The notes: a model not told the origin generated them from the letters alone. A stretch of DNA of 64,000 bases from Alphaproteobacteria bacterium (GCA_017937705.1 JAGBDC010000016.1:27518-91517), one strand, 5' to 3'. Counted from the first letter of the stretch, positions 6,249 to 47,075 are shown. Numbers and translations are program-made.

Positions 6249-8244
6249 ATTCAAAATAAACAGCCCTTTTGAACCGGCAGGAGATCAACCACAAGCAATA
6301 TCCGAGCTCTGCGCCGGGCTGGAACAAGGATTAAAAAATCAAGTATTATTGGGAGTAACAGGTTCCGGAAAAACATTTACTATGGCCAAAATAATCGAAC
6401 AATGCCAGAGGCCTGCGCTTATAATGGCTCCAAACAAAATTTTGGCAGCTCAGTTATATAGTGAAATGAAAGAGTTTTTTCCTAATAACAACGTTGAATA
6501 TTTTGTTTCATATTACGACTATTATCAACCTGAAGCCTATGTTCCAAAAACCGACACGTATATTGAAAAAGATTCTGCAATTAATGAACAAATTGATCGC
6601 ATGAGAAATGCTGCAACACGTAGCATACTTGAAAACAGAGATGTAATTATCGTTGCATCGGTTTCTTGCATATATGGTTTGGGAGATGTTGCATCATATT
6701 CGGCAATGACTTGTGAATTAAAAGTGGGCGATGAAACAGATACCTCTGATATTTGTCGTCGATTGGCAGAGTTGCAATATGAACGTAATCAACAAAATTT
6801 TGTTCGAACTACTTTCCGAGTGCAAGGTGACACGTTAGATATTTTTCCGGCTCACTACGAAGACAGAGCTTGGAGAGTTTCATTCTTTGGTGATGAAATT
6901 GAAAATATTTATGAATTTGATGCTCTTACCGGTAAAAAAATTGTCGATTTGGAACGTATAGTAGTTTATCCGGCAAGCCATTATGTTACTCCTCGTCCGA
7001 CACTGGCTCAAGCAATAAGCGGCATCAAAAAAGAACTTCAAGAACAGTTACAAATTTATCGAGATAACAACCAGCTTTTAGAAGCCCAAAGATTGGAACA
7101 AAGAACCAGATTCGATTTAGAGATGCTGGAAACTTCCGGACATTGCAAAGGTATTGAAAATTACTCCCGTTATTTGACCGGACGTTCTGCCGGAGAACCA
7201 CCGCCAACTTTATTTGAATATCTTCCGCCCGACGCTCTTTTATTTATTGATGAGAGCCACATATCCGTACCGCAAATCGGAGCAATGTTCAAAGGTGACC
7301 AAAATCGAAAATCGACATTGGCTCAGTATGGTTTTCGCCTACCATCTTGTTTAGATAATCGCCCTCTAAGACTGGAAGAATGGGAAAAAATGCGCCCACA
7401 AACCATTTTTGTTTCAGCAACACCGGGAGATTGGGAACTGGAGCAAAGCCAAGGTTGTTTCGCCGAGCAGGTTATTCGTCCTACCGGTTTGGCAGATCCT
7501 GTTTGTATTGTTCGTCCGGTAGAAAATCAAATTGACGATCTGATGGAAGAATGTCGAAAAACTATTTTGAAAAAAGAGCGTGTTTTAGTAACAACACTGA
7601 CAAAAAAAATGGCAGAAGACTTAACTGAATATCTTAATGAAAATGGTATAAAAGTTCGTTATATGCACTCGGATATAGACACGCTGGAAAGAATAGAAAT
7701 TATTCGAGATTTACGACTTGGAGTTTTTGATGTTTTAGTCGGAATTAACTTATTAAGAGAAGGTCTTGATATTCCGGAATGTTCATTGGTTGCAATTCTT
7801 GATGCTGATAAAGAAGGTTTTTTGCGTTCCGCACGTTCCTTAATTCAAACTATCGGACGCGCAGCAAGAAATGCCGAAAGTAAAGTTATTCTTTATGCCG
7901 ATAAAGTCACAAAATCAATAAAAGAAGCTCTTGATGAAACCTGTCGCAGAAGAGAGAAACAACTCAAATTTAATATAGAGCACGGCATAACACCGCAAAC
8001 AATCAAGAAAAGCATTTCATCAACTCTGCGAGAAATGAGCGAAACCGATTATGCTAAAAATGAACCGATAAATAAAGGTGATGCAAAAGATATTGAAAAA
8101 CAAATAAAAGAATATACAAAACTTATGCGCGAAGCTGCCGCTAATTTAGAGTTTGAACAAGCGGTCATTTATCGTGATAAAATAAAATCATTAAAACATT
8201 TAGCAATGCGAATTTATGATAACAGTATATATGAAAACGGCTAA
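6220..8244 (+). CDS. uvrB: Excinuclease ABC subunit B
   Basis: Protein of 674 aa with Walker [10 protein letters not shown], helicase motifs and a C-terminal UvrB/UvrC interaction coil. The true start may be the ATG at 6238 (MNNKF). Confidence 0.95.
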
Positions 8245-8750
8245 ACTTGGTATAGCCAACTTTTCTTAAGTTCAACTTCATATTTGCTCTTTAAAAATTT
8301 TATTTGTGCATTTGTTATTTTTGCACAAAACATTCTCTTTTTGTTGCCATCTTCAATCAATGTCAACGAAAACAAATCCTCCAAAACTTTAGGACGAATA
8401 TAGGCACAAGTCAGTAAAAACTTCGGCAAAGCAAATGATTTTTCAATAAAAAACCATCCTCCTCTGCAAACCACTCGGCGATTTGTAATCACCACTTCTT
8501 GCCATAAAGCTAACAACAAAGTATAAAAAATTATCGGAAAAAGAAAAATATCGTATATTGCCATCGGGACGAACAACAAAGACACAAAATAATAATACCA
8601 ATGACTTTTTATTCGGCAAATTATCTTTTCATCTTCTCTCAATTTTACGGCTAACAAATTACGCATATTTTGCCATAACTCTTGCTTTTTCCCGATTCCA
8701 ATCTCTTGTTTTTTCGGTTTCTCTTTTATCATAAAGCTTTTTACCCACAC
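8241..8750 (-). CDS. bPH_2/DUF304 (YdbT-like) membrane protein
   Basis: The track ORF overlaps smpB by about 90 nt. The likely true start is MRNLLAVKL at about 8663. It has two TM helices after a KSHWYYYF motif. Confidence 0.5.
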
Positions 8751-9147
8751 CGAGACCGACTTCTAATTTTGCTCGACCTTTCTCATTAAAAAACAGGCGA
8801 ATTGCAACCAATGTTGTACCTTTTTTTGCAATAGAACCGATTATATCATTTATTTCTTTTTTCTTCAGCAAAAGTTTTCTGTCTCGCTTTTCGGCATGAC
8901 TCGAATATCCTTTGTTGGAATATTCCGCAATAAACATATTGGATATATAGACTTCGCCGTTTTTATCAATTCCGAACGCATCAGTAATGTTTGCATGTCC
9001 TAAACGCAAAGATTTAACTTCTGTTCCGGTTAATTCAATTCCGGCAATAAATTTTTCTGATATATGATAATCAAACGAGGCTCGGCGATTTTGAGTCACC
9101 AAGCCCGTTGATATAAAATCAGACATTTTTGTTTTCTTAGCAGACAT
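8659..9147 (-). CDS. smpB: SsrA-binding protein
   Basis: Protein of 162 aa with FDYHISEKFIAGIELTGTEVKSLR and a C-terminal basic tail, typical of SmpB. Confidence 0.9.
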   Translation of the reverse strand: MSAKKTKMSDFISTGLVTQNRRASFDYHISEKFIAGIELTGTEVKSLRLGHANITDAFGIDKNGEVYISNMFIAEYSNKGYSSHAEKRDRKLLLKKKEINDIIGSIAKKGTTLVAIRLFFNEKGRAKLEVGLGVGKKLYDKRETEKTRDWNREKARVMAKYA

Positions 9148-9150
9148 TGG

Positions 9151-9588
9151 CTATTTTGCAACTCGTGCAGAAGCTTTTGTTTCTGTCTTTGTTTCAACAA
9201 CAGATAAAGAAGGCTTGCTTCTGATACAACGACCTTCAATATATGCACCAGGTTCAATAGCAATAGTATTGTGACTTGCATCACCGATTAAACGAGCTGT
9301 TTGTGCAATAAACAAACTGTCTGCATAGGCTTCACCCTGCAAAGCTCCGTATAGGTGCATGCTTTGAGCTCTTACCGTACCGGTAATTGAACCTTTAACC
9401 CCTATTATCAATTCTTCACAAGTAACATCCCCGTCAATAGTTCCGTCAACGTGCAAAATACCAGTCGAATTCATATTGCCTTTTACAATGGTATTTTCAG
9501 CAATAATAGTAGGCACAGAAACACCATTTCTGCCACGCCCTAAAAGTCTTGCAAACTTTAAATAAATAGTTTTTCTTAATTTTTTCAT
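9151..9588 (-). CDS. Bactofilin (DUF583, CcmA family) cytoskeletal protein
   Basis: Protein of 145 aa with repeated beta-helix motifs: GILHVDGTIDGDV...IIGVKGSITGTV...GALQGEAYADSLFI. Confidence 0.8.
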   Translation of the reverse strand: MKKLRKTIYLKFARLLGRGRNGVSVPTIIAENTIVKGNMNSTGILHVDGTIDGDVTCEELIIGVKGSITGTVRAQSMHLYGALQGEAYADSLFIAQTARLIGDASHNTIAIEPGAYIEGRCIRSKPSLSVVETKTETKASARVAK

Positions 9589-9596
9589 TTTTACCT

Positions 9597-10811
9597 CTAT
9601 GACAAACTGGCCTTAACAAAAGGCATTGGATTTACATCTTTACCCTGATATATAATTTCATAATGCAAGTGCGGTCCGGTAGAACGTCCTGTTGAACCCA
9701 ATTCACCGACATCGTCTCCTCGTTCAAGGTATTGTCCTTTTTTCACATAAGATTTATGCAAATGTGCATATTTAGTTATAAAACCATTTCCATGGTCAAC
9801 TTCAACAAGATTTCCGTAGCTTTTGCTATAATAAGACTTCGTAACTTTTCCTTTCGCCATAACCTTAATCTTATTACCGATTCTTCCTGCAAAATCAACT
9901 CCCTTGTGGGTTGCTTTGGTTCTCTTGAACGGGTCTTTTCTGGTTCCGTACTGAGAAGAAATCCAAAAACTTCTTACCGGTTTTCCGATAGGAACATATT
10001 CTAAAACCTCTCGATAGTAAGCAACATCATCAACCGTTTCATACAAACGACTAATTTTATCATTAACCTTTTTTTCTTGTAAAAATTTATTTTCTACCGG
10101 AACATAGGGGCCGCCGCTACGATGCTTTTTATTATTAGCTAGTGCATTAAAATAAAGCCCTTTCTTTTTCAATGGCTCATTAATAGCACTAATGGCACTC
10201 TTAATTTTGCTCATTTCTTCTTCGGCTATCTGCGAAACCTTATCTAAAACATCCATTTCAGCTGCTCGGATATCCTCAACCATATCTTGCATTTCGACCA
10301 ACTTGCGACGCAGTTCATCTCTTTCTGAAACAGCTATATCTCTTTGTAAAGAAACTTCATTAATGCTGGTTTTTTCTTCCAATTTTTCAGTATCAATCCA
10401 CTCCGAATTACTAGTAATTTGTTTTACTTTTTCCTCGACTAAAGATGCTTGTTGTTTATATTGTTCAACATCAAGTTTTTTATCTTCGGTTTCATCAAGA
10501 TTCTTAATCATTTGAGCGATATTACTTTGTAAAGTAACAAAGTCGCCCATCAGATCCATATAAGCATCACGAGTTGCATTAAGCTCAGAGTTTTTGCGAT
10601 TGATAATCAGACCGGAACGATTATACATGTGATGAGAATATCCGCTCCAAGCGGCAACAAATACAACCAATATCAACATTATCAGTTGCATTTTTGACGA
10701 TATATTAAACACTCTTGCTCGTCCATTACTTCTGAAAATAATTTCTTTATTTGAAAAGAACGGTTTTTTTTCAGTATAATTACGAACAATCTTTTTCGGT
10801 AGTTTCTTCAT
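9597..10811 (-). CDS. Membrane-anchored coiled-coil M23 (LytM) metallo-endopeptidase
   Basis: Protein of 404 aa with an N-terminal TM helix and a long coiled coil. The C-terminal LytM domain has HKGVDFAG and GSTGRSTGPHLHYEI motifs. Confidence 0.85.
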   Translation of the reverse strand: MKKLPKKIVRNYTEKKPFFSNKEIIFRSNGRARVFNISSKMQLIMLILVVFVAAWSGYSHHMYNRSGLIINRKNSELNATRDAYMDLMGDFVTLQSNIAQMIKNLDETEDKKLDVEQYKQQASLVEEKVKQITSNSEWIDTEKLEEKTSINEVSLQRDIAVSERDELRRKLVEMQDMVEDIRAAEMDVLDKVSQIAEEEMSKIKSAISAINEPLKKKGLYFNALANNKKHRSGGPYVPVENKFLQEKKVNDKISRLYETVDDVAYYREVLEYVPIGKPVRSFWISSQYGTRKDPFKRTKATHKGVDFAGRIGNKIKVMAKGKVTKSYYSKSYGNLVEVDHGNGFITKYAHLHKSYVKKGQYLERGDDVGELGSTGRSTGPHLHYEIIYQGKDVNPMPFVKASLS

Positions 10812-10914
10812 AATTTCACATGTTCCTTATTCGGAACATATATATCAAAAAAAAACAAAAAAATACAGAACTTTTTTTTATGTATTGAAAAATAAGGAGT
10901 CGCAAGCAATTTAA

Positions 10915-11229
10915 TTATTCTTCATCAAGAATAACGAACTCTCCCTCACCCACAAAATTAAGAACGGTTCTTGCGCGTTCATCAAGCATATCTAAATCTA
11001 AACTTTCTGAAGATAGCAACTTAACCTGTTGATCAAGTGTCTCTTTGTTTCTGCGATAGTGGTCGGCAATGTTGCGGGCGTGGGCGACTTCTTTTTGCAA
11101 ATAAATCAATTTTTGCAGTCCTCTTTCTCCGAATACCGCATTCAAAGTAAAATATATGCCAAGAAGAAAAGTTAATACCCAAAAACCGGTTTTGGTCATT
11201 TTAAGTTTTATATTTTGAAGCCACCCCAT
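10915..11229 (-). CDS. ftsB: Septum formation initiator (FtsB/DivIC family)
   Basis: Protein of 104 aa with an N-terminal TM helix and a coiled coil. Confidence 0.7.
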   Translation of the reverse strand: MGWLQNIKLKMTKTGFWVLTFLLGIYFTLNAVFGERGLQKLIYLQKEVAHARNIADHYRRNKETLDQQVKLLSSESLDLDMLDERARTVLNFVGEGEFVILDEE

Positions 11230-40871: not shown

Positions 40872-42392
40872 TTATTCAACAATCGGGAATAAAGGATCAC
40901 CGACTTTTATTGTCGAAGCTTCTTTTAGTTCAAACGGTTTAAATTCGGCCTTGAACTCATTCAATTCAACACCCAACGATGTTTCTATTTTTTCCGCAGT
41001 TGACGGAGCTAGCGGATAAAGCGCCAACCCGATTAATCTCAAACATTCCAGAGTGGTATAAACAACCGCATCAAATCTATCTTTTTGTGTCGGATCTTTC
41101 GCTAAAACCCAAGGGGTATTGGCAGCAAAATAAGCATTTGTCGCATCCCCTGCTTTCATAATACTGTCAGCAAGTTCGCTAACTGTTTCCAAACTCATTT
41201 CTTGATTATAAATACGTTCAAAACGACCGGCAATATCGGTAATGAGTTTTTTATCTTCGTCGTTTAATGCTGCTTTTGACGGAACTTTACCATCCAAGCT
41301 TTTTTGCACCATTTTCAAAACTCTCATTTGTAAGTTGCCGATATTGTTAGCCAACAATTTGTACCCTTGTTTTAACAAATCAACGCTGATTTGGCTATCG
41401 CCGGTCATAGTCATATTGTTGATGAGATAGAAGCGCAAAGCATCTACACCCAACAAATTAACAACCTCAACCGGATCAACAACGTTACCTAAAGACTTTG
41501 ACATCTTAACACCGCCTTCTCCAATCCAATAACCGTGGACAAAGCAATGTTTCACCGGATTTAAGCCTAGTGCATGCAACATAATCGGCCAATAAATACA
41601 GTGAGGTTTCAAAATATCTTTTGCAATAAGGTGATTTGAGTTTGCCCAAATATTTTCAAAATCAGGATTATGTCCGTAGTTATGAGTAGAAATGTAGTTA
41701 ACTAAGGCATCGAACCAAATATAAGTTACGTATTCTTTATCAAATGGTAGTTCAACACCAAGCCACACACGAGATTTCGGGCGAGAGATACATAAATCTT
41801 CCAAAGGCTCACGCAACATACCTAATACTTCGTTAGCAAATTTTGCAGGCTGAATCCAATCAGGATTATTTTTGATGTGCTCAATCAACCATTGACGATA
41901 TGGTTCAAGACGGAAGAAATAGTTTTCTTCACTGATTGCTTTCGGTGCAACTTTATGGTCCGGACAACAACCGTTTTCATCTAAATCGGTCTTTTTCTTG
42001 AATTGTTCGCAACCTTCACAATACAAACCCTCATAAGATTTTTTTACAATTAAACCTCTGTCATAAATATTTTGCAAAATTTCTTGCACGATTTTTTTAT
42101 GTTCCGGTTTTGAAGTGCGAACAAAATAGTCAAAATCAATACCTAAATCCACAAACAAATTTTTGAAATTATCACTTTGTTTTTGTAAAAACTCTTCAGC
42201 AGATAATCCGCTTTCTTCAATACTATGCTGATTTTTTTGACCATGTTCGTCGGTTCCGGTAGAATAAAATACATTATTGCCCCGCATTTGCTCAAACTTT
42301 TTCATGACATCGCCCAAAATAGAAGTATATGCGTGTCCGATATGAGGCAAACCGTTAAGATAATAAATCGGGGTAGTAATATATTTTTCCAT
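40872..42392 (-). CDS. metG: Methionyl-tRNA synthetase (short form)
   Basis: Start at MEKYITTPIYYLNGLPHIGHAY (HIGH motif), with KMSKS present (VKMSKSLGN). The track ORF extends upstream to 42458. Confidence 0.9.
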   Translation of the reverse strand: MEKYITTPIYYLNGLPHIGHAYTSILGDVMKKFEQMRGNNVFYSTGTDEHGQKNQHSIEESGLSAEEFLQKQSDNFKNLFVDLGIDFDYFVRTSKPEHKKIVQEILQNIYDRGLIVKKSYEGLYCEGCEQFKKKTDLDENGCCPDHKVAPKAISEENYFFRLEPYRQWLIEHIKNNPDWIQPAKFANEVLGMLREPLEDLCISRPKSRVWLGVELPFDKEYVTYIWFDALVNYISTHNYGHNPDFENIWANSNHLIAKDILKPHCIYWPIMLHALGLNPVKHCFVHGYWIGEGGVKMSKSLGNVVDPVEVVNLLGVDALRFYLINNMTMTGDSQISVDLLKQGYKLLANNIGNLQMRVLKMVQKSLDGKVPSKAALNDEDKKLITDIAGRFERIYNQEMSLETVSELADSIMKAGDATNAYFAANTPWVLAKDPTQKDRFDAVVYTTLECLRLIGLALYPLAPSTAEKIETSLGVELNEFKAEFKPFELKEASTIKVGDPLFPIVE

Positions 42393-42471
42393 TTTTAAAA
42401 CTCCTATAAAACTGTAAAACAACGGGAGATTATACCAACCCCTTGTTAAAATCAACATTTTTTAACAAAAA

Positions 42472-45400
42472 CTATCTACTTTCTCTGTCGGGACGAGATA
42501 ACGGCAATTTAATTTTGTCTGTCGGAATGTCATTTTCAACTTCGTTTATTTGCGGATTTTTAATATCATTACTTATGCAATCGAGAGCGTAGGAACGAAA
42601 TTCTTTTAACTTATCGGCACTACATCCCTTATCCGTAATCAACTCCGCATTTGTTTTGTTTTTATTCCATATTGCAATGGCATAAACTTTTTCTTCATCT
42701 TTCAAAACAATACACCTGTCGCCCTTTAACCAATCTATTTCATCTTTGCTCGAAAATAGTGAAAAAGCTCTTAAGTCTTCATCGTCACCGGCTTTAATAA
42801 CAATTCTCTCTATTGTTTCTTGATTTGCATTAGGGTTGTTTTTTATAATTCTTTGAACCTCGGCATCTGTATAACCTTCATAACCATCGGGAAGAGGATT
42901 AGTCGATGAAATTATTTGCCCCTCTAAATAGATATCATTCCCACTATTACCAACGGTTATATACTTATAATTATCTTTTGAAAACTCTTCAACCATTCCC
43001 AAAAATAAAGTTTCTACCTGTTCTTCACAATGTTCATGTGTATCGACCTCCACATTATCAAAAGTAAGGCCTTTAAAGTTACCGTTTTGGCTCGCATAAA
43101 ACCAACTGCAGGCTACAATTTTCCACGGCTCATCTTCATTTTTTCTACTCTCAAAAATTAAACATCCCGAATTAGGGTTAATAACACTGTCTACGGCACA
43201 AGGGCCACCGACATCTCCATAACTTTGGCAACAGGATGTTTTTTCTCCGACAAACAAAATTCGAACATCATCCTTTTTGGCAACCAAACATCTAAAATTT
43301 TTGTCACTGCTATAAAGAACAGGTTTATCGGCAAAACGTGAGGGAGTTATCATCCCTTTATAATAAATAACTTCTGCTTCATCGTATGTTTCTTGAGAAT
43401 CAACATAAGCAGAATTTTCAATAGCAAATTCTCTGCATGTATAATCAAAATTAATTTTTGATAAACGCTCATATACTTCGCTATATTTCATAGAGCTCAA
43501 TTCTTTATCCGTCAGATATTTCAATCGGGGGATTATTAAACTGAAATCATCTGAAAATTCCAAATCAGTACGTTCTATATCGTTCAAACTTCTTAGTCTT
43601 TTCTCTTCCAAATGAGGAGCATTAACTCGTAAAAAGGGCTGTCCGACAATATTTTTTGCCTTAATATTCTTATCTGCAAATTTTCGGATTCGTTCAAAAT
43701 CTGCTTTTGTGTTTATGGCTTTAACCATCCAACTTGTCGCTCTTTCAAAACCTATCGGTTTGAATTGTTCATCACTTATATAATTAGACGTCGCATAAAT
43801 TGTCCCTAGCAAACCATTTCTTTTGGCTGCAAGTCTGCGTCTTTCTCTTTTTATGTCAAACGACGAAGATGACAACACATTATTTTTCCATTCGTTAATA
43901 TATTTCTTAATATGAGAATCAATCTCATACAGGAACAAATTTTTCTTTAGAGCAACTCGAGCTAACAAAGCACTGTCAGGTAAATTTTCAAGACTCTTGA
44001 GAATAAAATCGGTCGCTAAGTACATAAACTCAAGTTCTTCTTTTTTATCATCATATTCATTTGACTTTTTCCAAAACTCATCTTGTCTTTTGGGAATTTG
44101 CTCATTGTAGTTTTCGATGGTTCGAAAATAATTCATATATTCTTTACCATAAATTTTGGCACACGCTATTGCAGAAGGAATAACCCATTGAGTATTGGCA
44201 TCTTCTTCTTTTTCGAAAATATATTTTTTTATATTCAAATATACACCGATGTTAAAGTCCTTACAAAAACCAGCCCCATTAGTCAGTAATGTCATTTTTT
44301 CATCAAGACTTAATTTTTGCGATGACAATATCCGATTAATATGTATTTTTTCTTCACTGGTTAATGACCGATACTCTTTTTCTATATCGGAATATTTCTT
44401 TTTCCATAATAAATGATTATCCGTCGCATATCTATATCGAGCATCCCATTTATTAAAATATTTCTTTACGGTTTCTGCCAGTTGCAATTCCACAAAAACA
44501 TTCGGCATTTTATCACCGACAGATAACAAAAAGCTTTTATACGCATCAAGCCCTATTCTGATTTCTCTATAATTCCAACGATTATTGCAATATTTTTCGT
44601 CATTCAACCAAAATTCGGGCAAAACTTTTTTATCTTTTGCTAATGCCACGCTTTTATCAGCTTGTTCCGAAAAATGAGAAGCAAACTCATTTAAAAATTT
44701 CAAAGCAGCAATTTGTCCGTCACAATCCATTTTTTGCGGAAGCATTTCAAACATCTTCAAAATACGTTCCGGCTGCACTTTAGATTTAATAGTTATTTGC
44801 TCTAAACAATTCAACATTGATGAGTATTTACATTTTTCAGGTAACACAGAAACGTATATTTTCCATATTTTAATACATTCATCTGATAATTGCGGACAGT
44901 CTTTCAAAATTGTTGCTAAAATTCTATCTATCTGATACGGAGGAATTGTCCCTGTATCATTCATTTTGCAATGATGATGAGCCAGTTTTTTAATATCTGA
45001 CACAATTTGTTTCATCATATCTTCATTATCAGGTTGTGTTGCCACATGTTCAACTATGTCTAAAACAGATTCCCAATACGTGTGAAGAAGCTGGGTTTTA
45101 GGCTCTTTAATCTTTCCAAAATTAGCAATATTTCCTTTAATACATTCAAACGCTTGTTGAAAATATCCTCTTTTTATCAATAAAGGACAAAAATTATTAG
45201 ATGTATTTTGGGCTAATAACAAAATATCCGGTATAATTTTTTCATTAGGATAATCATCCGGTAACATTTCATAAAAATCTAGAACATCACCGATAATATC
45301 GCGGTTATGAGCTACTTTTTTTATCAGTAACGGAATTTCATTGTGAAAGAGTTCAACGGCTTTATCTCTAAACTCATCATGTACAACAAAATCCATACAT

Positions 45401-46401
45401 AGTGAATTAAAATCAGGAATAACTCGTGTTTTATTTTTTTGAACCGATTGAACCAAACTAAACAAAATATTTTTATCAACTCTCGGCTCTTCTGAAAATT
45501 CTTTTGCCAACAACAGAGCATAACAACAAAACTCATCACTTATGTTTTTTTGTTTTAATTGTTTGTCAATTTTGCTTATTTCATCAATATAAATTTGAAT
45601 ACTTCGTTCATTGTGATCAGATTTGAACATATCCCCGCTGATGAAATTACCGTTTAAAGCAGCAACATTAAGAATATCCAAAGTTTTTCTTCTGATATCC
45701 GGTGTAATATTATTGGCCTTGAGAATATTTGCACATACATCAGAAATATTATCTCCGCAATCAATACTGTTTTTTATATTTTTAGCGGCAAAATCAAGAT
45801 GACTAAACAGAATATGTATATGTTCGTTATTGTTCATATCCGAAATACCGGCAAAAGCAACAATAGCATCCGTATATACTTCAGCATCTGTTTCTTCTAT
45901 AACTCTGGATGGAACAGCTCTTAACATTTTGCCGATTAGTTGTGTTTGTTCATCGATTCTGTTATCTTCATCTGCACCATCTCTGATTATATCTTTGGCA
46001 TAATCCAAAATCTCATAATATGCTTCTTTATTTCCGGTGGAGTTTGCTATTGTTTTTTCCAAAATACGTAAAGCTTCCGTAGTCTTTTTTCCCGGCCAGA
46101 CATTTCTAGAAACGCAATTTACAAATTCTCGGCTATATTCATACCCGTTTTTTTGAGAAAATTTTTCAATCAGACCTAATGTGCTATCGCTATGCAATTC
46201 GGTTAAAGTTTTATAAAAAATTTTACAGAGTTTTGAAGATGGTTTTTCAAATTTCGGAGAAGAAACAACTTTTTCCAATAAATTAATTAATTCTGTATTA
46301 CGCAAAATTACGGAAGAACATATATTACCTATAATATTTTCGCAATCTTCATTAGATTGTATCTCTGATATTTGCTGTTCAAAGCTTTTAAAAACGCTCA
46401 T
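42472..46401 (-). CDS. Very large (1309 aa) orphan hypothetical protein with no signal peptide and a Cys/His-rich C-terminal region
   Basis: The track ORF begins with TTG at 46422. A GGAGGT RBS lies 6 nt before the ATG at 46401 (MSVFKSFEQ). There is no TM helix or signal peptide. The gene is markedly AT-rich, at about 25-30% GC by eye. Confidence 0.6.
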   Translation of the reverse strand: MSVFKSFEQQISEIQSNEDCENIIGNICSSVILRNTELINLLEKVVSSPKFEKPSSKLCKIFYKTLTELHSDSTLGLIEKFSQKNGYEYSREFVNCVSRNVWPGKKTTEALRILEKTIANSTGNKEAYYEILDYAKDIIRDGADEDNRIDEQTQLIGKMLRAVPSRVIEETDAEVYTDAIVAFAGISDMNNNEHIHILFSHLDFAAKNIKNSIDCGDNISDVCANILKANNITPDIRRKTLDILNVAALNGNFISGDMFKSDHNERSIQIYIDEISKIDKQLKQKNISDEFCCYALLLAKEFSEEPRVDKNILFSLVQSVQKNKTRVIPDFNSLCMDFVVHDEFRDKAVELFHNEIPLLIKKVAHNRDIIGDVLDFYEMLPDDYPNEKIIPDILLLAQNTSNNFCPLLIKRGYFQQAFECIKGNIANFGKIKEPKTQLLHTYWESVLDIVEHVATQPDNEDMMKQIVSDIKKLAHHHCKMNDTGTIPPYQIDRILATILKDCPQLSDECIKIWKIYVSVLPEKCKYSSMLNCLEQITIKSKVQPERILKMFEMLPQKMDCDGQIAALKFLNEFASHFSEQADKSVALAKDKKVLPEFWLNDEKYCNNRWNYREIRIGLDAYKSFLLSVGDKMPNVFVELQLAETVKKYFNKWDARYRYATDNHLLWKKKYSDIEKEYRSLTSEEKIHINRILSSQKLSLDEKMTLLTNGAGFCKDFNIGVYLNIKKYIFEKEEDANTQWVIPSAIACAKIYGKEYMNYFRTIENYNEQIPKRQDEFWKKSNEYDDKKEELEFMYLATDFILKSLENLPDSALLARVALKKNLFLYEIDSHIKKYINEWKNNVLSSSSFDIKRERRRLAAKRNGLLGTIYATSNYISDEQFKPIGFERATSWMVKAINTKADFERIRKFADKNIKAKNIVGQPFLRVNAPHLEEKRLRSLNDIERTDLEFSDDFSLIIPRLKYLTDKELSSMKYSEVYERLSKINFDYTCREFAIENSAYVDSQETYDEAEVIYYKGMITPSRFADKPVLYSSDKNFRCLVAKKDDVRILFVGEKTSCCQSYGDVGGPCAVDSVINPNSGCLIFESRKNEDEPWKIVACSWFYASQNGNFKGLTFDNVEVDTHEHCEEQVETLFLGMVEEFSKDNYKYITVGNSGNDIYLEGQIISSTNPLPDGYEGYTDAEVQRIIKNNPNANQETIERIVIKAGDDEDLRAFSLFSSKDEIDWLKGDRCIVLKDEEKVYAIAIWNKNKTNAELITDKGCSADKLKEFRSYALDCISNDIKNPQINEVENDIPTDKIKLPLSRPDRESR

Positions 46402-46526
46402 ACATACCTCCGTAACGAGCAAAATGTTACCATATTATAAAAATTTTTGCAAATTATAAAAAAGTTCTTTATTTTTCAAAAAAATATGTTATATGTTGAC
46501 TATTCTTTCATATTAAGTTTTTGAAA

Positions 46527-46552
46527 GTGGGGCCGAAAGCCCCGCTTTTTTG
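46527..46552 (+). terminator. Hairpin plus U-run 20 nt upstream of the rimP start (terminator or attenuator-like)
   Basis: GUGGGGCC-gaaa-GCCCCGC followed by UUUUUUG. Confidence 0.4.
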
Positions 46553-46571
46553 TTAGAAAAAGGAAAAGTTT

Positions 46572-47075
46572 ATGCAAAAAAAACATCATTTGCACGATAT
46601 GCTTGAACCCACAATTAATAATTTAGGGTTTGATTTGGTGCGCATTATGACAATCGGAAACGTTAATCCTACTTTGCAAGTTATGATAGAGAAAAAAGAC
46701 CGCAGTAATATGGTGGTTGACGATTGTGCTACCGTAAGCAGAGCCATATCTGTCATTTTAGATGAAAAAGACCCGATTTCGGGGAGATACACGCTTGAGG
46801 TTTCTTCTCCGGGATTAGACAGACCGTTGGTTGCTCTTGAAAACTTTGTACGTTTTGAAGGTTTTGAAGCTAAAATTGAAACTGATGTGGAAATCGAAAA
46901 ACGCAAAAGATTTAAGGGACGCATCATTCGTGTCGATGGTGAAGATATCATATTTTTAATGGACGATAAGGAATGGACAATTCCTTATGATGCCGTATCA
47001 AAAGCAAAATTATTGCTTACTGACGAACTTTTAGCTATCGCAGAAGCTGAAGCAGCTGCGGAAGACGAAGAATAA
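46572..47075 (+). CDS. rimP: Ribosome maturation factor RimP
   Basis: Protein of 167 aa, DUF150/RimP, with a conserved position upstream of nusA. Confidence 0.85.
   Translation: MQKKHHLHDMLEPTINNLGFDLVRIMTIGNVNPTLQVMIEKKDRSNMVVDDCATVSRAISVILDEKDPISGRYTLEVSSPGLDRPLVALENFVRFEGFEAKIETDVEIEKRKRFKGRIIRVDGEDIIFLMDDKEWTIPYDAVSKAKLLLTDELLAIAEAEAAAEDEE

Follow-up and report, generated by a model that had tools for sequence, protein, structure and literature searches.

A large, rapidly diverging alphaproteobacterial protein encoded beside metG carries a predicted GNAT-fold domain of an unnamed family

Tandem GNATs, including VipF of Legionella (6wqb, 7wx5), GlmA of C. acetobutylicum (5kf1/5kf2), clavulanate CBG (2wpw) and MshD, carry two GNAT-type lobes in a single chain. 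In those that have been characterised only the C-terminal lobe is catalytic, and VipF itself is a host-directed effector (PMC10936415). This study concerns a 1309-codon gene in a 64,000-nucleotide stretch of DNA from an alphaproteobacterium (GCA_017937705.1, JAGBDC010000016.1:27518-91517), the whole of which is referred to as the window. Its product, hereafter the window protein, is probably built from an N-terminal alpha-solenoid, a helical linker, a GNAT-like domain (D1), the stump of a second such domain (D2) and a tail, with D1 as the active module of a fast-evolving gene resident in the chromosome of an uncultured alphaproteobacterial lineage.

The gene lies on the minus strand (42472..46401; 1309 codons plus stop) and is complete, encoding a 151 kDa protein of isoelectric point 5.5. 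An identical product is held by NCBI as MBP3546171.1 (J6K16_03450), from a metagenome-assembled genome (MAG) named "Alphaproteobacteria bacterium". The open reading frame (ORF) spans 42472..46422 and gives 1316 residues from an in-frame TTG; the 1309-residue product begins at an ATG at 46401, the Met of MSV..., and this start is common to all homologues. An earlier account made from the DNA alone, the sequence-only reading, had pointed to this ATG with its GGAGGT ribosome-binding site (46406..46411, minus strand, 4 nt upstream) and to the ORF as the largest of the window, and both points hold, the runner-up having 835 residues. It was also right in placing the gene between metG, which lies downstream, and rimP, which is divergent and upstream, and in describing some 1000 residues as helical-looking, as the first ~1000 are predicted to be all-helical. 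The transmembrane helix and signal peptide that it reported missing are likewise not found by hydropathy, the maximum Kyte-Doolittle 19-residue mean being 1.02 and the N-terminus hydrophilic.

No significant match was obtained for the full protein in Pfam, NCBIfam, PDB sequences, PHROG or PADLOC, and weak matches to Elongin_A and a terminase (E 0.16-0.29) were set aside as noise. Searching for homologues by word index gave few relatives, four full-length close ones (66-100% identity) and nine unnamed ones, so that an exhaustive profile search was necessary to find the family. Run with residues 120-1309, this search returned 403 representatives of clusters at 50% identity with E <= 1e-3, 71 of them with E <= 1e-10; with these and the four full-length homologues the protein is not the orphan that it had been called. 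Essentially all 403 match through residues ~955-1220, in proteins of 180-3000 residues that usually carry the module near their C-terminus. Matches of distant relatives begin in a helical linker (residues 871-1029; 43315..43791, minus strand, as are all parts of the gene) that is conserved across the family (FAxEAA...Y...E..Y...P..F) and leads into D1 (residues 1030-1200; 42802..43314). The linker is predicted with a local distance difference test score (pLDDT) of ~90 at residues 990-1017.

D1 is marked by a dense set of near-invariant residues, counted here in the ~150 best members of a family seeded from the window protein. The C1057-C1058-Q1059 motif (43225..43233) is conserved in 142/151, 150/151 and 150/151 members respectively, and position 1068 is also Cys in 125/151. 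F1114-D-N-V-E1118 (43048..43062) keeps D1115 in 152/152 and E1118 in 151/152, with N1116 in 123/152 and Ser in the rest. Y1177-T-D-A-E-V-Q1183 (42853..42873) keeps Y1177 in 126/136, D1179 in 135/136 and Q1183 in 114/130. Other near-invariant residues are G1052, E1084, S1099, W1100 and G1151. The window protein retains all of them and matches the family over ~985-1200 with its C-C-Q, S-W, F-D-N-x-E and Y-x-D-A-x-x-Q signatures intact. For D1, searches of Pfam, NCBIfam, PHROG and PDB sequences gave no match. Judged by profile and signature, D1 defines a domain family, so far unnamed, of which the window protein is the founding example; an apparent orphan thereby represents more than 400 clusters, found mainly in little-studied Alphaproteobacteria of gut and rumen and also in some phages. 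A profile of 26 D1 segments searched against PDB sequences gave chance-level matches only (Alba, TFIIH Tfb3; E 0.1-1), and a short, weak Pfam match of four of the same segments to Pcf11_C was not deemed meaningful.

An AlphaFold2 model of residues 975-1309, based on an alignment of 26 diverse segments, reached a pLDDT of 81.9 and a predicted template modelling score (pTM) of 0.79. Across residues 1036-1188 the predicted order is beta1-alpha1-alpha2-beta2-beta3-beta4-alpha3-beta5-loop-beta6, which is the GNAT topology with helix alpha4 swapped for a loop. The CCQ motif falls in the alpha1-alpha2 loop, S1099-W1100 on strand beta3, FDNVE at the end of strand beta4 and YTDAEVQ in the loop that stands in place of alpha4. 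Among the 50 best PDB matches listed by Foldseek almost all belong to the GNAT superfamily (GNAT acetyltransferases, FemX, N-myristoyltransferase), many of the GNATs matching with probabilities of 0.98-1.0. VipF is the top structural match of the C-terminal module, and the tandem-type matches further include GlmA, B. anthracis 3n7z, clavulanate CBG, FemX and N-myristoyltransferase. Single-domain matches comprise PCAF/GCN5 (template modelling (TM) score 0.55-0.58), AAC(3) (TM 0.61), SSAT and NatD. Among the viral models of BFVD the best match is an uncharacterised 656-residue phage protein that is itself a D1 family member (25% identity, TM 0.53, root-mean-square deviation (rmsd) 3.7 A), followed by GNATs and N-myristoyltransferases. 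From the model we conclude with good confidence that D1 is likely to fold like a GNAT acetyltransferase.

The clade that contains the window protein departs from the rest of the family at several positions in D1. Residue 1060 (43222-43224), directly after CCQ, is Ser or Lys in the window protein, P0005, P0006 and P0008, and His in 100/151 members. The clade has also gained three Cys, C1038 on beta1 (43288-43290), C1080 on beta2 (43162-43164) and C1098 on beta3 (43108-43110), where other members have G/F, F/L and Q/G respectively. Read from the alignment, these changes may amount to a remodelled metal or redox site, but they are one event at the level of the clade.

The tandem GNATs resemble the C-terminal module in having two GNAT-type lobes per chain with a divergent N-terminal lobe, the C-terminal lobe being canonical in relatives of the window protein. 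They also supply its best Foldseek matches (E 7e-5 to 1e-3, probability 0.9-1.0). Similarity at the sequence level is, however, not detectable; motif A and alpha4 are missing from D1, which carries its own CCQ/DNxE/YxDA signature, the C-terminal lobe of the window protein is a stump, a ~1000-residue solenoid is fused upstream and the TM-scores are 0.2-0.3. The single GNATs (GCN5/PCAF, AAC(3), SSAT, NatD) share the core fold and strand order with D1 (target-normalised TM 0.5-0.61, rmsd 4.4-5.8 A). They differ in that D1 has neither a Pfam GNAT match nor the pyrophosphate-binding loop, and in that its conserved residues include a Cys pair in the alpha1-alpha2 loop rather than lying in alpha4/beta5. 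The pseudo-dimers N-myristoyltransferase and FemX have an internally duplicated GNAT fold and appear among both PDB and viral structural matches, but at TM 0.18-0.29 and probability 0.4-0.9 and with no shared motifs.

The second lobe is vestigial in the window protein. In the model, residues 1201-1281 (42559..42801) retain only beta1'-alpha'-beta2'-beta3'-beta4'-alpha3', and the half of D2 that would bind coenzyme A (CoA) is lost. A D2 profile built from relatives aligns with the window protein over positions 14-67 of 183 only, at 8 bits, compared with 202 bits in P0006 and 162 bits in P0008; these two have two complete lobes with a competent C-terminal one, which the window protein does not. 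The only approximation of motif A in the stump is TDKGCS, which is not kept in P0005. In the relatives D2 has the consensus IYDMAVLPEYRKDKNxSSxKLL...GGEWxAELRDxTSLRYM and matches Pfam Acetyltransf_1/Acetyltransf_7 weakly (17.5-22 bits, E 2e-4 to 5e-3), with only the D2 of P0017 reaching the 20.7-bit Pfam cut-off. As D1 and D2 align by hhalign with a probability of only 0.8%, an internal duplication is not demonstrable at sequence level. Family members generally have a variable N-terminus, a conserved linker and D1, and often a complete D2: among the 153 best representatives, 69 have D1 and a full D2, 61 end at most 40 residues after D1 and 21 have other tails. Members are also encoded by 11 IMG/VR contigs and by the Microcystis phages MaMV-DC and MaMV-DH01, and phage proteins of 601-659 residues stop directly behind D1. 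D1 therefore works without D2, and with D2 vestigial in the window protein it can be regarded as the functional core. Its stronger conservation than D2, its independence in phages and its place as the most constrained part of the gene indicate that D1 has a function of its own.

In GNAT enzymes the alpha1-alpha2 loop shapes the acceptor site, motif A in the beta4-alpha3 loop binds the pyrophosphate of CoA and, in GCN5-type enzymes, the general base lies at the end of beta4. By analogy with the acceptor loop and the general-base position, CCQ and DNxE are plausibly active-site elements. We propose that the solenoid would bind a macromolecular target and that D1 would act as the active module, a group-transfer (acyl-transfer-like) or ligand-binding centre. 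Three groups of residues would form this centre: C1057/C1058/Q1059 with C1068, in the acceptor-side loop between alpha1 and alpha2; D1115/N1116/E1118, where beta4 ends; and Y1177/D1179/Q1183, in the loop that takes the place of alpha4. A donor, if there is one, would be bound otherwise than acetyl-CoA is in canonical GNATs, as motif A and alpha4 are lost. The analysis shows the gene model, the selection on it, its synteny, the domain architecture and fold, membership of the family, the pattern of conservation and the loss of D2; that D1 is catalytic, that the solenoid binds a target and where the protein acts are inferred. If D1 is catalytic, the known chemistry of the GNAT fold would be extended. 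A bolder version, which we think unlikely, sees D1 as a new catalytic GNAT branch in which a Cys-Cys-Gln / Asp-Asn-Glu / Tyr-Asp centre has taken over from the canonical acetyl-CoA site and carries out other group-transfer chemistry. Gut Alphaproteobacteria and phages would deploy it on interchangeable solenoid arms as a weapon or counter-weapon aimed at the proteins or translation apparatus of another organism.

Several points weigh against a GNAT-like active module. Motif A (Q/R-x-x-G-x-G/A) is not found in D1, where the beta4-alpha3 loop (DTHEHCEE) is variable and has no conserved Gly; helix alpha4 is absent from the AlphaFold2 model; and no curated GNAT profile matches the window protein or any of the 26 D1 segments. 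With neither of these elements and no sequence profile link, the fold assignment rests on one AlphaFold2 model and Foldseek, whose output is silent on which residues were superposed. Over the whole module the TM-score to tandem GNATs is low at 0.2-0.3, with an rmsd of ~16 A. The model of the N-terminus is moderate (pLDDT 72, pTM 0.48, alignment of six sequences), and nothing relevant on the D1 motif or the phage homologue turned up in the library searched. Lastly, since the lobe lost is the C-terminal one, which is the catalytic lobe of tandem GNATs, the window protein could be catalytically dead.

This last point leads to the possibility of a pseudoenzyme, a non-catalytic scaffold whose solenoid and D1 cleft would only hold a partner or ligand, the protein serving as a regulator or adaptor. 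The vestigial D2, the missing motif A and alpha4 of D1 and the non-catalytic N-terminal lobe of the characterised tandem GNATs (PMC10936415) all speak for it. We nevertheless consider it rather unlikely, as D1 has a dense set of invariant polar residues (C, C, Q, S, D, N, E, Y, D, Q) that ~150 diverse sequences conserve better than they do D2, in a pattern typical of an active or ligand-binding site and not of a passive lobe. D1 also stands alone in phage proteins and is the part of the gene under most constraint. Nature has in effect run the experiments, with D1 alone in phages, D1 with a D2 stump here and D1 with an intact GNAT in other relatives, which makes the active lobe straightforward to probe.

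The conserved residues bear equally on the tentative suggestion of the sequence-only reading that Cys and His residues of the C-terminus recall a cysteine-protease active site. An enzyme of this OTU/papain or deubiquitinase kind would use C1080 or C1098 together with H1122/H1124. The three peptides that it quoted are indeed present, at residues 1076-1087, 1095-1104 and 1120-1127, and its picture of a large, lineage-specific, cytosolic-looking protein with an enzyme-looking C-terminus and conserved Cys stands. The "Cys/His-rich" label is half right: the C-terminal 272 residues contain 10 of the protein's 31 Cys but only 2 of its 20 His. The conserved Cys are, however, C1057, C1058 and C1068, and not those of the quoted motifs, of which C1080, C1098, H1122 and C1125 are not conserved. 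Position 1080 is Cys in 10/149 members (usually F or L) and position 1098 in 10/152 (usually Q or G), and H1122 and C1125 are both Tyr in three homologues at 66-70% identity. In the GNAT-like fold the motifs map to beta2, to beta3 and to the variable loop between beta4 and alpha3, and no protease is found among the 50 best PDB matches listed. Membership of the papain/OTU group is rejected on these grounds; with local sequence resemblance as all that favours it, the protease idea is scarcely credible.

The N-terminal part of the protein is predicted by AlphaFold2 and Foldseek to form a clade-specific, HEAT/ARM-like alpha-solenoid of short paired helices (residues 1-590; 44632..46401). The pLDDT is ~85-94 at residues 1-360 and 60-85 up to residue 590, and the N-terminal 990 residues are predicted to be all-helical. 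Residues 591-870 (43792..44631) are poorly predicted at 592-715 and then form long helices, including one of 69 residues (737-805). Foldseek matches the N-terminus with probability 1.0 to SF3B1, CAND1, importins/karyopherins, PP2A-A and a designed ARM protein. Low TM-scores are usual for flexible solenoids, and those obtained here are only 0.1-0.26 for a model with pTM 0.48, with no sequence match of the window protein to a repeat family. The N-terminal ~590 residues are modelled with paired short helices like those of the HEAT/ARM scaffolds (SF3B1, CAND1, karyopherins, PP2A-A), but with no sequence-level repeat family and low TM the likeness is one of structural class and is not evidence of homology. 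Among relatives the N-termini do match HEAT-like Pfam families, INTS1_R4 in 6/42 along with FANCI, LRV_2, INTS7_N and PDS5.

The gene changes rapidly at a fixed place in the chromosome. Another metagenome contig (L001) carries a homologue at the same position with 69% protein and 64-82% DNA identity, whereas its pnp, truB, infB, nusA, rimP and metG are 96-98% identical in protein (metG 97%) and ~85-98%, mostly 90-95%, in DNA. Nei-Gojobori estimates between the two (window 42472-46401, L001 10001-13936) give dN 0.195, dS 1.10 and omega 0.18 for the ORF, and dN 0.002-0.019, dS 0.37-0.60 and omega 0.005-0.04 for the six flanking genes. An omega of 0.18 indicates that the ORF is under purifying selection and truly coding; its protein nonetheless changes 10-100 times faster than those of its neighbours. 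The strongest constraint falls on codons 1001-1100 (omega 0.05) and 701-800 (omega 0.07). Along the ORF dS is a mosaic, 0.56-0.59 at codons 401-600, equal to that of the flanking genes, and 0.8-2.3 elsewhere, which suggests intragenic recombination between divergent alleles. This extreme rate at a fixed core-genome locus fits a role in conflict, as an effector or in host interaction, and marks the gene as a candidate for such functions. The variable solenoid arms, the mosaic dS, the phage members and the frequent C-terminal Arg of the family would agree with conflict between organisms or interaction with a host.

The order ORF-then-metG is kept in three other contigs (L001, L003 and L047), the last of which has an ORF (P0005) 37% identical over the C-terminal half only and a metG at 86.5%. 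The gap between the two genes, 79-84 nt, is conserved from 100% to 37% ORF identity. On the bolder version above, such a linkage in this clade hints at Met-tRNA or initiation as a possible target. AtaT, a GNAT toxin, acetylates Met-tRNAfMet. D1 could accordingly be imagined as a translation-linked transferase akin to FemX, L/F-transferase or AtaT that acts on Met-tRNA or an initiation component, so that the pairing with metG would be functional. The conserved gap, the lack of a terminator-like site between the two genes, the presence of FemX among the structural matches and the divergent rimP-nusA-infB genes upstream would agree with this. In the wider family, however, 0/32 genome loci and 0/11 viral loci lie next to metG, none lies beside rimP and no other neighbour is conserved; P0006, which among relatives whose D2 is intact is the nearest, is located elsewhere, and the spacer between the ORF and metG contains a TTGATT/TATAAT promoter-like pair. 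Vertical descent alone can explain the linkage and does so most simply, and a link to translation appears very improbable.

The wider distribution was surveyed in one genome per GTDB species with an alignment of a narrower clade, which biases the recovered loci towards the CCQH/GSWxWE subgroup. The scan gave 32 loci, nearly all in MAGs of uncultured gut and rumen Alphaproteobacteria from the RUG, RGIG, UBA, human (Hadza, Nepal), yak, deer and reindeer sets, the remainder being a Trueperaceae MAG and some odd bins. The ORFs derived from these genomes mostly encode 776-2004 residues, one being cut by a contig end. Signal peptides are absent from all 21 relatives examined, of which only two contain a segment hydrophobic enough to pass the usual transmembrane threshold. 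No neighbouring gene is conserved across 23 family loci, and the PLSDB plasmid collection contains no family match.

These habitats bring in the possibility that the protein is a secreted effector or toxin, exported independently of Sec (for example by a type IV secretion system (T4SS)) and directed at a protein of a host, protist or competitor. The solenoid would then mimic eukaryote-like scaffolds while D1 modified the target, a role that would be compatible with the architecture proposed above. It is favoured by a dN 10-100 times that of flanking genes with a mosaic dS, extremely fast divergence at a locus that stays fixed, relatives that nearly all come from MAGs of gut and rumen Alphaproteobacteria, a Legionella Dot/Icm effector (VipF) as the top structural match, a disordered but conserved tail ending in Arg, an RHS repeat in one distant relative and the apparent dispensability of the gene, a copy at >=90% identity in another MAG being split by a frameshift. 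Set against these, no secretion machinery is visible in the window or in the 10-kb flanks of ~45 related loci, which also share no conserved neighbours, and the protein lacks a signal peptide as well as PAAR, LXG and any other trafficking domain. An immunity-like gene downstream is absent and codon usage is native. A direct reading of the last 30 residues gives a net charge of ~-1, so that the tail is not clearly a positively charged T4SS signal, and the phage homologues argue for action inside the bacterial cell. Export as an effector or toxin is thus a possible but tentative reading. The looser "effector-like" sense of the sequence-only reading draws circumstantial support from the fast evolution, the solenoid, the gut/rumen MAG and phage relatives and the VipF match, and its claim is on the whole partly supported: the protein is effector-like in evolutionary behaviour, but it is neither a protease nor foreign nor an orphan.

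Comparison with the Rhs-type polymorphic toxins is similarly mixed. The variable N-terminus and conserved C-terminal module recall these toxins, and the 2802-residue distant relative with the RHS repeat (P0061) is a family member, but the window protein has no RHS, PAAR or LXG and is followed by metG, with no adjacent immunity gene, and is not placed in this group.

A foreign origin is not borne out by composition or locus. The GC content of the ORF is 32.5%, where 25-30% had been estimated by eye; the 66 genes of the window average 38.2% (SD 2.9), which places the ORF 5th lowest (z = -1.9), and GC at third codon positions is 25.6% versus 30.2% (z = -1.1). Synonymous codon usage is like that of other genes (size-matched scaled chi-square 0.247 versus 0.241 +/- 0.099), and the lower GC is therefore due to an amino acid composition rich in K, I, N, D and E. 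The composition is not atypical once computed, and horizontal transfer is rejected given native codon usage and syntenic vertical descent; the AT-rich, foreign flavour of the sequence-only reading falls with it. Of the three outcomes that this reading had named as refuting it, two were thus obtained, an unremarkable composition and a lack of conservation of its Cys and His residues.

The C-terminal tail (residues 1282-1309; 42475..42558) ends ...PLSRPDRESR and is predicted to be disordered (pLDDT < 50), with most columns invariant in four close homologues. A terminal Arg occurs in 22/84 family members with tails ("GR" nine times), far above expectation, and in 7/21 genome-derived ORFs. From these sequences, an Arg-ending tail might be a recognition or translocation signal.

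The split copy belongs to MAG IJZ59 and to the same >=90%-identity cluster as the window protein. It consists of pieces of 812 and 517 residues (P0160, P0161) with a frameshift near residue 772, within a Lys-rich (A-rich) stretch, and the split product is found on five contigs. It represents either pseudogenisation of a dispensable gene or a homopolymer sequencing error. In L003 (ERZ1948696 contig_932), a distant syntenic copy, the ORF is fragmented into many short reading frames and metG is interrupted too, which looks like error-rich assembly and not real gene decay. No second copy of the ORF is present in the 64-kb window.

Downstream of the ORF, metG is the conserved partner, with 506 residues (40872..42392, minus strand) counted from M23 of the listed 528-residue ORF and a gap of 79 nt to the 1309-residue ORF. 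The listed ORF has an N-terminal extension of 22 codons (42392-42458), and a homologue of 506 residues begins MEKYITT; the real start is probably M23, at window position 42392. The promoter-like pair mentioned above lies inside this extension. Synteny with L001 ends directly after metG (window 40837, L001 15569), where the window continues into the S10 ribosomal-protein operon and L001 into Amidase_2 and nucleoside-salvage genes. On the other side, rimP (46572..47075, plus strand) is the first gene of a divergent rimP-nusA-ylxR-infB operon. A scan for promoters and terminators found sites no more numerous than in shuffled sequence and is therefore uninformative. In the divergent intergenic region between the ORF and rimP (~46000-46600) the sign of the GC skew switches and the cumulative curve is at its lowest. 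Elsewhere in the window skew also tracks gene orientation, so that the switch is probably a coding-strand effect and not a replication origin.

The surroundings of two other family loci were also noted. In MaMV-DC (L002, 4708-6801) the member is ORF68L, a 697-residue protein annotated as hypothetical, with the holin-like ORF70 at a distance of two genes and the endolysin ORF71 at a distance of three; related IMG/VR contigs have a similar layout with a ~1350-residue gene downstream. In MAG UBA3773 (L004) a 979-residue member (6252-9191) directly precedes a 522-residue ORF (9367-10935) that clusters with the family, and the pair may be a tandem duplication or a fragment.

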